The notes under the pieces were generated by a model. The model made no database searches. It was not told where the DNA came from and was given only the letters and a program-made list of their open reading frames with translations. A stretch of DNA of 64,000 nt. Source: Methanobacteriota archaeon (GTDB lineage: Archaea; Thermoplasmatota; Poseidoniia; Poseidoniales; Thalassarchaeaceae). The translations under genes were made by a program, and so were the position numbers. Positions 51,854 to 60,205 of this stretch are shown piece after piece (the stretch's first letter is position 1; each line of letters opens with the position of its first letter). The stretch is taken from contig JABIKU010000002.1 in the NCBI GenBank assembly GCA_018654845.1, positions 81,602-145,601 on the forward strand, written 5' to 3'.

Positions 51854-52741
51854 TTATTCGCCATCCCAGATTCCTTCTGCAATCATGAATTCCATGACTC
51901 GTTCCGACACGTTCGCCCTGTTTCCCCCACGAACGCCTGTTGCAGATATTGCGAATACCTCTGGAGGTATGTCGTCCGCCTCACGGAGTTCGTAACCGAC
52001 CTTGCGGCCGTAGGAAATTGCTTCGATATCGGGCATAACCCATGCCTCAACGTCTTCGTCAGCATACCTATGCTCAATCATTCTCTTTCGAACATCTGTT
52101 GAGAAGGGATCTGAATCCGATACTGGAGTATTTCTGATGCCAACAACAACCCTCTTTCCTTGATCTAACTCTCTTTGGATGAGCCATTCGTGACCCACGT
52201 GTAGAGGTTGCCAGCGACCTGGAAGAAGTACGGATTTTTGCTTCTCAAAGAGATGTGCTAGTTGCCCGACCATGTCGTCGACGGAGTTGCCTTCATTACC
52301 ACTAGAATCTAGTGTGATGTGTGCACACTTTGGTTCATCAAAGGGGTCGCTAATACCTGTAAAATTAGTTATTTCACCAATGCGGGCCTTTGCGTAGAGG
52401 CCTTTCACATCTCTTTCCTCACATACTTCAAGAGATGTAGATACGTGCACCATAACTGCATTATCTGGGAGTATTTCTAGAATCTTCTCTCGTACGTCTT
52501 CGTAAGGAGTGATGAATGAACAAAGAACATCGGTGTGTTTTGAAATCATTTTTGCCATCTTAGCAATGCCGAGAAGATGTCTTTCTCGTCCTTCGCGGCT
52601 AAAATCGTGGTTAGCAAAGAAGTCTCTAATTGTGTCTCCATCAAGCACTTCACAACCATACCTGTCTGCTGCTGCCATAGCGATAGTTGTCTTTCCTGCT
52701 CCTGAAAGACCTGTGAACCAAACTACTCTGTTGCTCATCAT
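51854..52741 (-). CDS. cysC: adenylylsulfate (APS) kinase fused to a C-terminal NMNAT/cytidylyltransferase-like nucleotidyltransferase domain
   Basis: N-terminal [56 protein letters not shown] (CysC). C-terminal ~130 aa with [17 protein letters not shown] (GxxQPxHxGH) and [10 protein letters not shown] (ISxTxxR-like). Confidence 0.88.
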   Translation of the reverse strand: [295 protein letters not shown]

Positions 52742-52850
52742 TACACCTTCCGGGACTCGGCCGAAATATGACCCGTATTTTATTGCGACGGGTGGTTGAT
52801 GTAACTATTAATGTGTGAATTCCTATATCTGAAGTACCGGGGGGAGTTCC

Positions 52851-53744
52851 ATGGAGGCAGGGCAGCCAGTGGTTCCTGAGGTCGGCGCTTTTCTCCTAGG
52901 TTCACCCAAAGCTGGCACCACTTGGTTAGCAGATGCCCTTTCTCAACACCCAGATATTTGTGTCTCTGATCCTAAGGAGCCAAATATTGTAGCTACTCAC
53001 AAAGGAACTTTTTCCAGAGATGCTTCGCCTCCAAATTGGGAAGCATATGCTGACTGTTTCGTAGAAAAAGGGGTGCGAATAGATTGTTCGGTTCACGCAT
53101 TAGCCTGCCCGATAGCTCCTCAAAGAGTCAGAGAAAATTGGCCAGGTGCAAAATTGATTATTTCTCTTCGAGAGCCCGTCAGTCGCACGATTTCTCATTG
53201 GAATATGGCCATCAGCACAGAAGAAGATAAGGAAAATAATTTGGATTGGAGTGATTTTGAGGTGGCTTGGTCGGACTCACGTTTACAGTGTGACACACTT
53301 TATGGGTCGGCTATCTCAAGATGGCTGGAATTTTTTGATTTAGATTCTATTTTGATTATTGAAGCAAAGAGGATGAGGGAGGAGCCGGCGATCGTTCTGA
53401 AAAAAATTTGTGAGCACATTGGTGTCGATGATTATTCCTTTAGATTAGATCTGGTGCGCAACACAAATACTGCTTCAGATAGGCGGCCCCTTACTTTATT
53501 TGGCCGCCTATTTCGTAGCCTTGCAAATTTATTGCCTGATTTAGTAAAGAGGCCGGTTGTAAAGCGATTACAAAAAAAGGGTGTGAATATATACAAAATG
53601 CCAGTATTATCTGGTAAAGCACTTGAAAAACGGAAAATCACTGATGAGCAACGATCTATTCTGGCTGAAACAGTGAATGAAGACCTATTGCTTTTAGAAG
53701 AATTAACCGGTTTTTCAAATCCAGATTGGTGGATTCAGTCCTGA
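52851..53744 (+). CDS. PAPS-dependent sulfotransferase
   Basis: 5'-PSB loop FLLGSPKAGTTWLADAL and 3'-PB motif ISLREPVSRTISHW. 297 aa, no signal peptide. Confidence 0.88.
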   Translation: MEAGQPVVPEVGAFLLGSPKAGTTWLADALSQHPDICVSDPKEPNIVATHKGTFSRDASPPNWEAYADCFVEKGVRIDCSVHALACPIAPQRVRENWPGAKLIISLREPVSRTISHWNMAISTEEDKENNLDWSDFEVAWSDSRLQCDTLYGSAISRWLEFFDLDSILIIEAKRMREEPAIVLKKICEHIGVDDYSFRLDLVRNTNTASDRRPLTLFGRLFRSLANLLPDLVKRPVVKRLQKKGVNIYKMPVLSGKALEKRKITDEQRSILAETVNEDLLLLEELTGFSNPDWWIQS

Positions 53745-54547
53745 TGGGCTATCCATTGCTCGTTCCAACGATCATCTGCTGCTACCATGAAAAATGGGTT
53801 TAATATATTGTCAACTACATCGTAATCAAGAGTTTTTCCCGTAGGACCCAACACACAACCTCCGGCACCGACAACGACAGCGTGTGCTGCCGCTATATCC
53901 CAACAAGATGTTGGTCCGAATCTAGGATAGAGATCTGCATTACCTTCTGCGACAATACATGCCTTCAGAGAAGAGCCCATTCTAATTAGGTCATAATTCC
54001 CAAGCGTTTTGGCAAAAGATTCGTCTTTCTCACCCCTATGCGATCCGCTTGCGACCAGCCTTGTTGGTTTTGGGGGATTTGAGGGATTTACCATCATTAA
54101 ACCAGAACCATCTGAACCCCTTCTTTCTGATGGGTGGGATATGCCCCCTAACCAAGTGGTATTCGGCACCGGAGCATGAACAACGCCGAACAGTGGTGAC
54201 CAGCGGGCGCCCTTTTTCACCATCAATGCGATGTTAACAGTAAACATTCCATTCCGCTTGATGAATTCCTTTGTCCCATCAAGAGGGTCTACCAACCAAC
54301 AAGTGTTACTCGAGATTGGGTCTCCGACATTACCTTCCTCCGAAACAATTGGTATGTTATTCAACGACTGTAATCCCTCGACAATGAGGTTGTGCGCTGC
54401 AATATCAGCTTCTGTCAAAGGAGAATTGTCACTTTTGTTAGATATTTCAAATCCTTCTGCGCGGTTGTAGATTTCTAAAATCGCAAGCCCTGCATCTTCT
54501 GCAAGCTTGACAATGAATTCTGAATCCAAAAGGGCCACTCCGATCAA
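53735..54547 (-). CDS. cysQ: 3'(2'),5'-bisphosphate nucleotidase (CysQ / inositol monophosphatase family)
   Basis: VSEEG, WLVDPLDGTKEF, GSSLKACIVAEGNADLYPRFGPTSCWDIAAAHAVV. TTG start overlaps the stop of the upstream membrane gene (TTGA). Confidence 0.88.
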   Translation of the reverse strand: MIGVALLDSEFIVKLAEDAGLAILEIYNRAEGFEISNKSDNSPLTEADIAAHNLIVEGLQSLNNIPIVSEEGNVGDPISSNTCWLVDPLDGTKEFIKRNGMFTVNIALMVKKGARWSPLFGVVHAPVPNTTWLGGISHPSERRGSDGSGLMMVNPSNPPKPTRLVASGSHRGEKDESFAKTLGNYDLIRMGSSLKACIVAEGNADLYPRFGPTSCWDIAAAHAVVVGAGGCVLGPTGKTLDYDVVDNILNPFFMVAADDRWNEQWIAHQD

Positions 54548-58928: not shown

Positions 58929-59004
58929 TTCTACTCCAACACTTGCATTGAGTAAGCGATGCCCTCCTTGATGATGAAAAAAGCAGCACCTCCCATATCG
59001 GCCA

Positions 59005-59178
59005 TTATTGTAGTGGTTGGTGAACCGCTGGAGAAAGTGTTGACATCAACGATTTGACTAACTTTTGATGAATATCAAGTTCTAATAAATCTGATTCCAT
59101 AAACAATGGAGAAATCGATGAAATTATTAGAAGAATGCTCAAAAAAACAACTTCTCTTGTATAAGCATTATTTGCCAT
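59005..59178 (-). other. detached 57-codon ORF encoding a signal-peptide-like N-terminus, probably the displaced 5' end of the giant ORF
   Basis: Minus-strand ATG at 59176-59178 gives MANNAYTREVVFLSILLIISSISPLFMESD... and stops at 59005-59007. It is below the 60-aa track cut-off and in a different frame from 55194-58928. Confidence 0.5.
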
Positions 59179-59272
59179 AATGTGTGATAAAACATGGCTC
59201 TTAATAGGTTTTTTACGAAATCAGGTGTTTTTTCCTGAGGAAATCTCTTTTTCATCCTGGGCGATGAAAGGT

Positions 59273-60205
59273 TCATCGGGATTTGTCAATAATGAGTTTC
59301 GAATCGATATATTTCGAAAGATTTTTTTGAAATTCAAGTTCTTCAGAAAAAACCGTTTCGAGTTCTTTTCTAACGTCTTCAGATAGTTCTGGTCTTCGAT
59401 ATGGTTTGGGTTTGAAAGCCGGAGAACGAATTGGATCTAGAATGGCCTTGCGTAATTTTTGAGTAGGAATTAGTATTTTTATCAACGATGCTAGAATGGT
59501 TGGCGGCTTTCTAACAAATTGTGCCCACCTTGCAGAATTTATCATTCCACTTTCATTTTGCTTTGATAAATTTATATCGTCTGAAAATTTTTCAACCCCC
59601 AACCATTCTAGTATTTCGTTCAGAGTTTGGATCGGGGCTGCTTTGAGGGAATTTATTGGTATGATTCTAACTCTGTCGCCTAGTTTTTCTACCCATTCAA
59701 GAACGGGCTGTTTTAATTGGGGAAACCGCATAAAACTGTATGTTTGTGGGTTATTTTCATCGATTACAAATCCTGCCTCGCGGCAATAATCTATCATTTC
59801 ATCTTGTGTGAGTGTGTAATCAATCAATCTTTTTCGATGTTCTTGATGCATGCTTAACATGATATCTATTGGATCTCGGAGTGTAATTATCACCTTCGCT
59901 TCTGGCATTTGATCTTTAATTGAAGATAGTGCCCTTGTTGAATAGAGGTGGAATGCGGATTTGTCCATTACGTAATTTTCCTTGTTATAGTTAGAAAGAT
60001 CTGCATATGGAGCTAGGATTGCGGTTCCTTTCGGATGTATTGGAGAGGTTGGAAATTCTGCTGCGCCAGCGATTAAAAATTGGCTCTCATTTGGCCACGG
60101 ATGGAATATCTGTTCGTGCTCCCTGAGCCAGTGCATCAACGAGGTCGTGCCGGTTTTTGGGCCACCGACAAGAAGTAAATTTGGTGCCGGTTCAAATCGA
60201 TGCAT
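59273..60205 (-). CDS. PAPS-dependent sulfotransferase (carbohydrate sulfotransferase-like)
   Basis: 5'-PSB LLLVGGPKTGTTSLMHWL and 3'-PB IITLRDPIDIMLSMHQEH. 310 aa, no signal peptide. Confidence 0.88.
   Translation of the reverse strand: MHRFEPAPNLLLVGGPKTGTTSLMHWLREHEQIFHPWPNESQFLIAGAAEFPTSPIHPKGTAILAPYADLSNYNKENYVMDKSAFHLYSTRALSSIKDQMPEAKVIITLRDPIDIMLSMHQEHRKRLIDYTLTQDEMIDYCREAGFVIDENNPQTYSFMRFPQLKQPVLEWVEKLGDRVRIIPINSLKAAPIQTLNEILEWLGVEKFSDDINLSKQNESGMINSARWAQFVRKPPTILASLIKILIPTQKLRKAILDPIRSPAFKPKPYRRPELSEDVRKELETVFSEELEFQKNLSKYIDSKLIIDKSR

Follow-up and report, generated by a model that had tools for sequence, protein, structure and literature searches.

A conserved, probable sulfate-activation locus of Thalassarchaeaceae, in one version with APS kinase fused to a small HxGH nucleotidyltransferase domain

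Six open reading frames lie between the genes for the ribosomal protein LX and for PfdA and FtsY in the 64-kb stretch of archaeal DNA that we analyzed (hereafter the window). All six were found where an earlier note on this DNA had placed them, and the APS_kinase, Sulfotransfer_1/3 and Inositol_P assignments proposed there were upheld by Pfam and NCBIfam profile searches. The features are as follows, with a nucleotidyltransferase domain abbreviated as NT.

49908-51194, minus strand: ftsY (TIGR00064, 6.7e-91), downstream block boundary
51204-51755, minus strand: pfdA (TIGR00293, 3e-17), downstream block boundary
51854-52741, minus strand: CysC-NT fusion, 295 aa (Pfam and NCBIfam; APS kinase motifs read from the sequence)
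52247-52741, minus strand: APS kinase domain of the fusion, aa 1-165 (APS_kinase PF01583, 6e-40, aa 5-144)
51857-52246, minus strand: HxGH nucleotidyltransferase domain of the fusion, 130 aa, aa 166-295 (CTP_transf_like PF01467, 4.5e-6, aa 172-238)
52851-53744, plus strand: ST1, cytoplasmic Sulfotransfer_1 protein, 297 aa (3e-11; 5'-PSB motif PKAGTTW)
53735-54547, minus strand: CysQ-type 3'(2'),5'-bisphosphate nucleotidase (PAP phosphatase), 264-270 aa (Inositol_P, 9e-41; TIGR01331, 1.5e-66)
54544-55146, minus strand: TM2, orphan protein with two transmembrane segments (no match in Pfam, NCBIfam or PDB)
55194-59178, minus strand: gene for a large surface protein rich in Gly, Ser, Thr and Asn, about 1333 aa in its intact form (signal/TM segment at the N terminus, TM anchor at the C terminus; no family match for the ORF 55194-58928)
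59273-60205, minus strand: ST2, cytoplasmic Sulfotransfer_3 protein, 310 aa (Sulfotransfer_3, 1.8e-10; Sulfotransfer_1, 2.8e-6; 5'-PSB motif PKTGTTS)
60259-60522, minus strand: LX/L18Ae ribosomal protein (PF01775, 5.8e-11; NF001981, 47.5 bits against a cutoff of 40), upstream block boundary

The conservation of this block was assessed in 80 Poseidoniales ftsY loci, 48 of which are MGIIb (Thalassarchaeaceae) loci that span LX to pfdA. All 48 contain a core consisting of TM2, CysQ and a PAPS-synthesis gene between these boundaries (cysQ itself was counted in 47). In the Poseidoniaceae (MGIIa), LX is located about 100-530 bp from pfdA, leaving an empty site (L082-L085); the suspected interruption of the LX-pfdA-ftsY adjacency is thus borne out, and relatives lacking the block do exist. 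GC and GC3 of the core genes are at background level, and neither a tRNA or integrase gene nor flanking repeats were seen at the block. Hence, the block is not the accessory island that the earlier note had suspected but probably a native sulfate-activation and sulfation locus of MGIIb, and the comparison of base composition proposed in that note marks the giant gene and ST2 as somewhat AT-rich.

These two genes provide the basis for a different view, according to which the block is a recently acquired island that serves to sulfate the neighboring giant glycoprotein of the cell surface or the glycan attached to it. Both are situated inside the block, deviate in composition (GC3 z = -2.0 for the giant gene; GC z = -1.7 for ST2) and are similarly arranged in a sister species (L008), and the giant protein combines signal and anchor segments with 27 N-x-S/T sequons (18.8 +/- 3.7 in shuffled sequences). 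However, among the 48 MGIIb loci the giant gene is present only in that of the sister species, in addition to the window species itself, so that the core is maintained without it; in the closest other species (L007, 93% FtsY identity), neither the giant gene nor ST2 is present, and a different Sulfotransfer_1 gene occupies their slot. Homologues of the giant protein, which belongs to a family of MGII proteins of 1330-1450 aa, are encoded elsewhere in MGII next to FtsZ/M28, nitroreductase or succinate dehydrogenase genes and never adjoin sulfation genes. The gene is, moreover, broken in the window. It starts at 59178 with the signal/TM segment MANNAYTREVVFLSILLIISSISPLF, and two 1-nt deletions near 59073 and 58982, as judged by the intact alleles of L002, L003 and L008, sever this signal peptide from the remainder; the second deletion is also present in the L001 and L004 contigs. 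The 1244-aa membrane-anchored, sequon-rich protein described earlier is therefore what is left of a gene of about 1333 codons, although its single C-terminal TM segment (aa 1194-1225) and its wealth of sequons are real. Collectively, the giant gene is a species-specific passenger and not the surface protein around which the module was thought to be built; a recent island devoted to it has already been largely refuted by synteny, and we consider it very improbable.

The sulfotransferases are likewise variable components of the locus. ST1 is transcribed divergently from cysC-NT (109-bp spacer) and convergently with cysQ (10-bp overlap), while LX and TM2 flank the variable cassette slot in which ST2 is situated. 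Genes of the ST1/ST2 types occur in about 20 of the 48 MGIIb loci and a third type in four, and many loci have none; sulfotransferases are swappable cassettes of three types, with zero to two per locus. Neither ST1 nor ST2 possesses a hydrophobic segment, in keeping with the previous observation that they have no signal peptides. Their nearest solved relatives are carbohydrate sulfotransferases: both match PDB entry 3rnl (9e-12 for ST1 and 1.7e-14 for ST2), and ST1 also matches heparan sulfate 3-OST and NDST (1e-6). It is solely from this distant similarity to heparan-sulfate sulfotransferases that we infer a glycan as the acceptor.

CysQ and TM2 belong to the conserved core of the block. CysQ scores 224.6 bits against TIGR01331, slightly below the cutoff of 228.8. 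The TM2 stop codon overlaps the cysQ start or is positioned within 15 bp of it, and TM2 is found in 48 of the 48 MGIIb loci. Its two TM segments were recognized correctly in the earlier note; judging by its homologues, translation probably begins at about 55098 (184 aa) rather than at 55146. An AF2 model of TM2 is all-helical (pLDDT 75) and found no match in Foldseek. The 217 TM2 homologues are all unnamed, those with a source label derive from marine Euryarchaeota, and one (L076) is coupled to a nonulosonic-acid operon.

The PAPS-synthesis gene of the core exists in two versions, APSK-NT as in the window (type A) and cysD together with cysN-cysC (type B). They are mutually exclusive at one slot (about 35 versus about 23 species-level loci), and their interleaving on the FtsY tree requires at least three switches. 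No gene for Sat, CysD or CysN was found anywhere in the window, and no type A locus has Sat or CysDN encoded less than 10 kb away. The complete capacity for PAPS production previously ascribed to this block accordingly depends on a putative sulfurylase activity of the fused NT domain.

Foldseek searches with an AF2 model of CysC-NT retrieved, as the best 40 PDB matches, exclusively APS kinases or PAPS synthase/ATP sulfurylase entries containing an APS kinase domain. The NT domain displays the pattern GRxQPxHxGH plus ISxTxxR (ISATGVR in the window), and HxGH and ISxTxxR are invariant across its family (211 representatives at E <= 1e-10). These are motifs of a superfamily that includes Sat, and the succession of an adenylyltransferase and a 3'-kinase is the logic both of PPAT-DPCK in CoA synthesis and of ATPS-APSK. 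We tentatively propose, at odds close to even, that the NT domain is a minimal ATP sulfurylase. It would adenylylate sulfate (ATP + sulfate -> APS + PPi) and pass APS to the fused kinase, and CysC-NT would thereby be a minimal bifunctional PAPS synthase replacing the CysD and CysN-CysC proteins of sister genera. Besides the invariant motifs, this proposal is founded on the repeated switching of the mutually exclusive types A and B, on the lack of Sat and CysDN in the window and around type A loci, and on the gene arrangements of other lineages. There, fusions with APS kinase place the NT domain on either side of the kinase, and in L094 it is encoded by a separate gene adjoining an APSK-HAD fusion; a sulfurylase gene is nearby in one of five NT-linked APSK loci but in 19 of 27 NT-less ones (Fisher p = 0.053); and three phage contigs (L171, L173, L174) pair the fusion with sulfotransferases without any sulfurylase. 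In a fourth such contig, L172, the fusion is accompanied by no annotated sulfotransferase.

Other observations count against a sulfurylase. The best PDB sequence match of the NT domain is a NadM-type NMNAT (E ~1e-3), the closest kind of characterized relative, and phage NadM proteins are matched as well; similarity to Sat is marginal (hhalign probability 26%) and there is no PF01747 match in the domain. In an acidobacterial locus (L088) the NT-APSK gene directly adjoins cysD and cysN, so that a sulfurylase function of the NT domain would be superfluous there, and stand-alone NT homologues occur in phage contigs devoid of sulfur genes (L089/L090). It is conceivable, though somewhat less probable, that APS stems from an unlinked Sat or CysDN and that the NT domain serves as a regulatory or oligomerization appendage of APS kinase, or else as an adenylyltransferase for another small, NMN-like substrate. 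A precedent is found in Entamoeba histolytica, where a non-catalytic sulfurylase-like domain modulates APS kinase (PMC13213808); this domain has lost substrate binding, unlike the NT domain with its invariant catalytic motifs. The repeated in-situ exchange of APSK-NT with cysD plus cysN-cysC also speaks against such an accessory role, and an unlinked CysN-CysC would provide type A genomes with a redundant second APS kinase. Since neither MGIIa nor type B MGIIb has the NT domain, an essential role in NAD synthesis is excluded and the domain does not act as a housekeeping NMNAT; it reaches only 32 bits against NCBIfam NMNAT models (cutoff 127). Read against the sequence of MJ0541, it appears to lack about 22 residues of the stretch between the PDIE and ISxTxxR motifs of archaeal NMNAT, which would fit a smaller acceptor.

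NadR likewise joins an NMNAT domain to a P-loop kinase. With NadM-type NMNATs (MJ0541, Francisella NadM-Nudix) the NT domain shares both motifs; it differs from NadM and NadR in its size (130 versus 168-181 aa) and in its partner, a bona fide APS kinase. Like the bifunctional PAPS synthases (metazoan PAPSS1/2, Aquifex Sat-CysC, fungal ATPS-APSK-like proteins), CysC-NT unites a domain of the HxxH-class adenylyltransferase fold with APS kinase in one polypeptide, fusions occur in both orders (PMC2275785), and its kinase domain is about 32-40% identical to that of human PAPSS1 in Foldseek alignments. The non-kinase domain, in contrast, comprises 130 aa, whereas Sat including its PUA-like domain has about 400 aa; it is devoid of the QxRNPxHxxH and GRDHAG motifs and is a putative sulfurylase. 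From the CysD/CysN-CysC complexes (MGIIb type B, Rhizobium NodPQ, Mycobacterium), CysC-NT differs by having neither the PAPS_reduct-fold CysD nor the GTPase CysN with its GTP-driven coupling, and the kinase domains of CysC-NT and CysNC share only about 40% identity; the MGIIb type B version nevertheless shares the slot, the neighbors (TM2-cysQ ... pfdA) and the presumed output, PAPS. Bacterial PAPS-dependent glycan sulfation clusters (Nod-factor NodH/NoeE with NodPQ; sulfated polysaccharide clusters such as L088) also combine dedicated PAPS synthesis with Sulfotransfer_1/3 proteins in one locus, whereas here the host is archaeal, the window's block contains no glycosyltransferase or exporter, and the MGIIb block has a conserved orphan membrane partner.

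For the locus as a whole, we favor, with a probability of roughly 0.6, a native cytoplasmic sulfate-activation and sulfation locus of Thalassarchaeaceae. It would have been inserted long ago at the LX-pfdA junction with the PAPS-synthesis gene, CysQ and TM2 as its conserved core. CysQ would remove the inhibitory by-product PAP, TM2 may participate given its tight coupling to cysQ, and the interchangeable carbohydrate-type sulfotransferases would use PAPS to sulfate a glycan; the most plausible acceptor would be a lipid-linked or cell-surface glycan that is put together on the cytoplasmic side of the membrane. The many MGIIb loci without a sulfotransferase in the block count against this reading, and no sulfate transporter was identified in our analysis.

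PAPS could alternatively be reduced to sulfite and sulfide in assimilatory sulfate reduction, for which cysD, cysN and cysC are classical genes; the window also encodes a cysteine-synthase-like protein (PALP, 8880-9827), and Orellana et al. 2019 (ISME J 13:3024; PMC6864105) devoted a heading and discussion to sulfate assimilation as an advantage of MGIIb. Yet the same study reports cysD, cysNC and cysQ as MGIIb-specific and cysH as lacking from all eight MGII MAGs, and it names PAPS as a sulfotransferase donor. Since cysH is absent from these MAGs, PAPS is most likely consumed by sulfotransferases and not by sulfate reduction. Sulfotransferases are embedded in at least 20 loci, CysQ is retained and no sulfite reductase was seen near the locus; we regard an assimilatory function as highly unlikely.

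The system is not wholly new to the literature, contrary to what the earlier note had suggested: PAPS synthesis and cysQ in MGIIb, with none in MGIIa, agree with the findings of Orellana et al. 2019 (PMC6864105). In its text and tables, that study covers the cysD/cysNC version only and does not describe where the locus lies, its universal TM2 partner, its cassettes of sulfotransferases or the variant with CysC-NT. The apparent novelty lies in the 130-aa HxGH nucleotidyltransferase to which APS kinase is fused; together, this small domain and the kinase may represent a new compact route to activated sulfate.

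The interval between the gene for the ribosomal protein LX (L18Ae) and the pfdA-ftsY pair contains the following genes (profile matches from Pfam and NCBIfam):

51854-52741 (-): fusion of an APS kinase (APSK) and a 130-aa nucleotidyltransferase domain (NT), 295 aa; APS_kinase at aa 5-144 (6e-40), cytidylyltransferase-like HxGH domain at aa 172-238 (4.5e-6)
52851-53744 (+): sulfotransferase ST1; Sulfotransfer_1 (3e-11)
53735-54547 (-): CysQ; Inositol_P and TIGR01331
54544-55146 (-): 2-TM protein; no family in Pfam or NCBIfam
55194-58928 (-): giant-protein ORF; no family in Pfam or NCBIfam
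59273-60205 (-): sulfotransferase ST2; Sulfotransfer_3 (1.8e-10)
60259-60522: flank, LX/L18Ae
51204-51755: flank, pfdA
49908-51194: flank, ftsY

All of the open reading frames described in the earlier note exist, and the domain profiles back its assignment of an APS kinase, a CysQ-type phosphatase and sulfotransferases. Its observation is largely real, and its interpretation of this block is partly right.

The window derives from a genome of the Thalassarchaeaceae, the family also known as marine group IIb (MGIIb) of the Poseidoniales. To place the block in its phylogenetic setting, we collected 80 Poseidoniales ftsY loci with 10-kb flanks, mapped the window proteins onto them, and clustered all ORFs located between LX and pfdA; the FtsY protein of the window is 93% identical to that of two Poseidoniales MAGs. 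In loci of the Poseidoniaceae/MGIIa kind, LX is directly followed by pfdA-ftsY (in one such locus, L085, LX at 574-810 and pfdA at 912-1457), so that an empty site exists, and the proposed insertion is borne out relative to MGIIa. Every one of the 48 MGIIb loci that reach across the junction contains the block. Its 2-TM protein and a cysC-containing gene are present in each of them and CysQ in 47/48, while sulfotransferases of the ST1/ST2 families occur in 20/48 (31 genes), and a third type, of the Sulfotransfer_1 family, occupies the ST2 slot in 4/48, as in the close other species represented by L007. GC and GC3 of the core genes are at background level (GC z -1.2 to +0.4); a mild deviation is confined to the giant gene (GC3 z = -2.0) and ST2 (GC z = -1.7), and this segment is the only patchy, mildly AT-rich part of the block. 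The two tRNA genes of the window are both more than 19 kb away. Given the core in 48/48 loci, its normal GC and the distant tRNAs, we discard a recently acquired genomic island, and with the conserved core and background composition the description as an accessory island falls as well. The block is an old insertion, common to the whole family, in which the core is conserved and the sulfotransferase cassettes vary. In deep Poseidoniales (L074 6996-9360, L077 and L078 2412-6338) the same junction holds other glycan genes, namely a GT4 glycosyltransferase, a GHMP-kinase/NTP-transferase fusion and a methyltransferase, and it thus seems that the LX/pfdA junction recurrently collects surface-glycan genes.

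Several further features of the stretch deserve mention in their own right. A 164-aa coiled-coil ORF without a family match (60591-61085, +) is conserved at 26-50% identity in the LX-pcrB interval across Poseidoniales, and a receiver-domain (Response_reg) protein with a Pro-rich linker and a C-terminal TM segment (49204-49887, -) is likewise conserved directly downstream of ftsY. A 344-aa protein (43124-44158, -) carries a peptidoglycan-binding domain (PG_binding_1), which is unexpected for an archaeon without murein. A low-GC gene pair (29987-32181, +; GC 0.38-0.40, z about -1.6 to -2.1) encodes a GT4 glycosyltransferase and an APH-family kinase and may be another variable glycan-related segment.

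The giant surface protein, around which the earlier note had centred its module, is a passenger of the block: it occurs in 1/48 loci (the sister species L008) in addition to the window species, and none of three homologue contexts (FtsZ and an M28 peptidase; a nitroreductase; succinate dehydrogenase) lies near sulfation genes. Nor is the 1244-aa ORF a whole gene. Intact alleles in the comparison loci L002 and L003 and in the sister species L008 encode 1333-1347 aa and begin with a signal/TM segment whose start corresponds to position 59178, and in the window allele two 1-nt deletions (near 59073 and 58982) split this segment from the body of the protein. The second deletion is shared with L001 and L004, two loci from other samples; the gene is hence polymorphic and broken in the window allele. 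Programmed frameshifting or phase variation was considered and rejected: neither indel falls in a long homopolymer, intact alleles are found alongside the broken ones, and a simpler explanation is pseudogenisation or polymorphism in the population. The protein belongs to a family of unannotated MGII proteins of 1330-1450 aa with 30-80% full-length identity. Its 2.2 sequons per 100 aa compare with 0-1.3 in cytoplasmic proteins of the window and lie only about 2 SD above a composition-matched shuffle. It may well be a glycoprotein, but we see no specific link between it and the sulfation module.

Of the proposed PAPS make, use and recycle pathway, the domains found support the part that concerns use, and probably also the part that concerns recycling. 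Both sulfotransferases exceed the cutoffs of their profiles (PF00685 / PF13469; 43.6 bits for ST1 and 41.9 bits for ST2), and SLREPVSRTISHW and TLRDPIDIMLSMH are found in their translations, as looked for with the 5'-PSB and 3'-PB motifs. The 5'-PSB motifs PKAGTT and PKTGTT are the only PKxGTT motifs in the window. A hydrophobic segment is absent from both proteins, and the solved structures nearest to them are 3rnl and heparan-sulfate 3-O- and N-sulfotransferases. CysQ scores 224.6 bits with TIGR01331, a little under the equivalog cutoff of 228.8, with the HisN (91.6) and SuhB (53.8) models far below. The kinase half of the fusion is a genuine APS kinase. It reaches 137.1 bits with PF01583 (cutoff 21.1) and 134.3 bits with TIGR00455, marginally under the equivalog cutoff of 138.7. 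The motifs that define APS kinases, a P-loop, DGDxxR, FxxP and the lid KGLYxKARxGEIxxFTGIxxP(Y/F)ExP, are all readable in its translation. An AF2 model of the whole fusion (pLDDT 68) retrieved PDB entries by Foldseek with E-values down to 1e-9, the best 40 of which are without exception APS kinases or APS-kinase-containing PAPS synthase/ATP sulfurylase entries. The public assembly collection has 289 indexed blocks with identical copies of the fusion; among the places listed, all six are metagenome assemblies.

It is the synthesis of PAPS for which the pathway, as the earlier note had drawn it, is less secure, in that no canonical ATP sulfurylase is encoded in the 64 kb. The fusion has no PF01747 (Sat) match, the QxRNPxHxxH and GRDHAG motifs are absent from the whole window, and tblastn queries with MGIIb CysD and CysN matched neither the window nor any locus of its type. 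With no Sat, CysD or CysN in 64 kb, PAPS formation would depend entirely on NT. MGIIb loci are of two types. In type A loci (about 35 species-level loci) the slot between cysQ (or ST1) and pfdA holds the APSK-NT fusion of 293-295 aa, and in type B loci (about 23) the same slot holds cysD (297 aa) together with a cysN-cysC fusion (630 aa). The two types are mutually exclusive: cysD/cysN lies within 10 kb of no type A locus, and NT is present in no type B locus. Identity between the kinase domains of types A and B is only about 40%, so whole genes were exchanged, and a neighbour-joining tree of FtsY, a single-gene tree and as such a rough guide, interleaves both types and implies at least three switches. 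The fusions of L011 and L012 are 95% identical to the window copy although their FtsY proteins are only 69% identical; across four such loci (L011, L012, L009 and L039) the values are 91-95% for CysC-NT, 66-70% for FtsY and 45-52% for pfdA. Conservation so out of proportion to that of the neighbours suggests either strong constraint or lateral spread within MGIIb. One MGIIb clade (L018 4480-5658; L013, L019-L021, L023) has a CysQ with an additional N-terminal region of about 125 aa containing Cys-rich motifs, and its cysC-NT gene is inverted and located between a LON-substrate-binding-domain protein and a secreted 304-aa protein.

By profile and motifs, NT can be assigned to the HxGH nucleotidyltransferase superfamily (PF01467, CTP_transf_like; 4.5e-6, 27.3 bits, cutoff 21). 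It contains PLHVGH and ISATGVR, and HxGH and ISxTxxR, the defining motifs of this superfamily to which Sat also belongs, are invariant in the family alignments. Its closest characterised relatives are NadM-type NMN adenylyltransferases, with PDB E-values of about 1e-3 and matches that span only residues 6-73 of 130. An assignment as a NadM-type NMNAT was rejected, because both an equivalog-level score (NF002243, 32.5 bits vs 127; TIGR01527, 22.5 vs 181) and a full-length domain (about 170 aa) are lacking; on our reading against MJ0541, NT is about 22 residues shorter between the PDIE and ISxTxxR motifs of archaeal NMNATs. The distribution of NT excludes a housekeeping role in NAD synthesis. 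A specific kinship with Sat was not upheld by profile-profile comparison either, as the match of the NT family to five Sat sequences is too weak (hhalign probability 26%, HxxH region only).

A search with NT alone among 1.84 billion representative proteins yielded 665 relatives, 211 of them at E <= 1e-10. Many are fusions of 250-320 aa in either order (APSK-NT or NT-APSK), and others are stand-alone proteins of 110-160 aa. On a metagenomic, bacterial-like contig (L087) APSK-NT adjoins a Sulfotransfer_2 gene, and on three phage contigs (L171 10001-11649, L173 6887-12901 and L174 5708-7425) the fusion is immediately beside sulfotransferases (Sulfotransfer_2/3); L171 and L174 carry terminase and portal genes, and L173 additionally has glycosyltransferases, methyltransferases and a radical-SAM gene. 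A fourth phage contig (L172) has the fusion without an annotated sulfotransferase, a virus-like contig (L094 6066-11385) has a separate NT gene, an APSK-HAD fusion and several sulfotransferase-like ORFs, and NT-APSK stands alone on an unclassified metagenomic contig (L091). The phage contigs suggest a mobile two-gene sulfation cassette. A metagenome scan with an NT-APSK alignment drew in mainly ordinary APS kinases by way of their kinase motif, with only about four NT-bearing proteins, and its NT-less remainder was reused as a control set. When only non-MGII loci with 3 kb or more of flank on either side are compared, a sulfurylase gene is near 1/5 NT-linked vs 19/27 NT-less APSK loci (p = 0.053); the phage loci, fetched after this comparison, are likewise without one. 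A scan of viral contigs for relatives of the fusion found none, and carriage by magroviruses is thus without evidence. Proteins of about 245 aa with APSK-like and CTP_transf_like parts, annotated merely as 'kinase' or hypothetical, are encoded by the cultured phages Sano of Xylella (gp35; L175 4980-5717) and DLP_6 of Stenotrophomonas (L176 3986-4717). Such proteins of cultured Sano-like Xylella, Xanthomonas and Stenotrophomonas phages have no annotated sulfotransferases nearby and were set aside as uninformative, because their kinase part matches the P-loop half only. Our literature searches turned up no relevant paper on a fusion of APSK with a cytidylyltransferase or on a PAPS cassette in phages.

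The displacement of CysDN in situ, the fusions in both orders and the cassette contexts make the adenylylation of sulfate by NT the most economical reading, to which we assign a probability of about 0.45-0.5. The same principle, a 3'-kinase acting after an adenylyltransferase, underlies both ATPS-APSK and PPAT-DPCK. We hold the estimate at this level for four reasons: NT-APSK adjoins cysD, cysN and glycosyltransferase-sulfotransferase fusions in an acidobacterial locus (L088), the similarity to Sat is marginal, our sulfurylase scans covered loci rather than whole type A genomes, and there is a precedent for a rival explanation. According to the latter, NT would regulate the APS kinase as a sulfurylase-like domain without catalytic activity, as is found in Entamoeba (PMC13213808); the co-occurrence in L088 would suit such a role, and the replacement of cysD and cysN-cysC at one and the same slot speaks for catalysis. 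Taken further, the catalytic reading would make NT a third, minimal class of ATP sulfurylase within a PAPS synthase of about 295 aa, which has repeatedly displaced CysD/CysN-CysC in MGIIb and, in phages and bacteria, moves with sulfotransferases as a sulfation cassette of two genes; we regard this wider proposal as tentative, its chances being slightly short of even.

No gene accompanies the PAPS genes more faithfully than that of the 2-TM protein, whose stop codon lies at most 15 bp from the start of cysQ or overlaps it. Searches of Pfam, NCBIfam, PDB sequences and Foldseek gave no family or structural match to it; the 217 detectable homologues are all unnamed, and those with a source label derive from marine Euryarchaeota. 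In an MGIIa-like locus (L076 15362-18881), from a lineage without PAPS genes, a homologue with 37% identity shares 4 bp with the start of a gene for a CMP-sugar synthetase/GT28 protein (CTP_transf_3 and GT28); NeuB comes next, and the whole is a nonulosonic-acid operon. We found no support for a sulfate transporter, and this homologue argues against sulfate specificity. As both contexts add anionic groups to glycans, they suggest that the 2-TM protein may assist the modification of glycans on the cytoplasmic side, as a scaffold or accessory protein in the membrane.

The system is not wholly undescribed, as had been supposed, since the lineage-specific PAPS trait is already published: cysD, cysNC and cysQ are encoded by MGIIb but not by MGIIa MAGs (Orellana et al., 2019; PMC6864105). 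The same study reports that cysH is missing from all eight MAGs and names sulfotransferases as possible users of PAPS, which agrees with the earlier view that the block serves sulfation rather than reduction. The searchable text and tables of that paper do not describe how the locus is built, its orphan membrane protein, the way in which the cassettes vary or the APSK-NT variant, and sulfate is not treated by Rinke (2018) or Tully (2019). The noteworthy residue of our analysis is a candidate new compact sulfate-activating enzyme, along with an orphan membrane partner. If NT is an ATP sulfurylase, pathway annotation at present wrongly scores the genomes concerned and cassette-bearing phages as unable to activate sulfate; the fusion would then be a very small PAPS synthase, useful in sulfation engineering, and a third evolutionary solution for an energetically difficult reaction. 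Marine group II archaea are described as among the most abundant planktonic archaea and are still uncultured. The conserved, family-wide commitment of MGIIb to PAPS in the absence of a PAPS reductase implies that bearing sulfated molecules on the cell surface or in the membrane is one of its defining traits, and the swappable sulfotransferases suggest a diversification of the cell surface, possibly in response to pressure from viruses or grazers.
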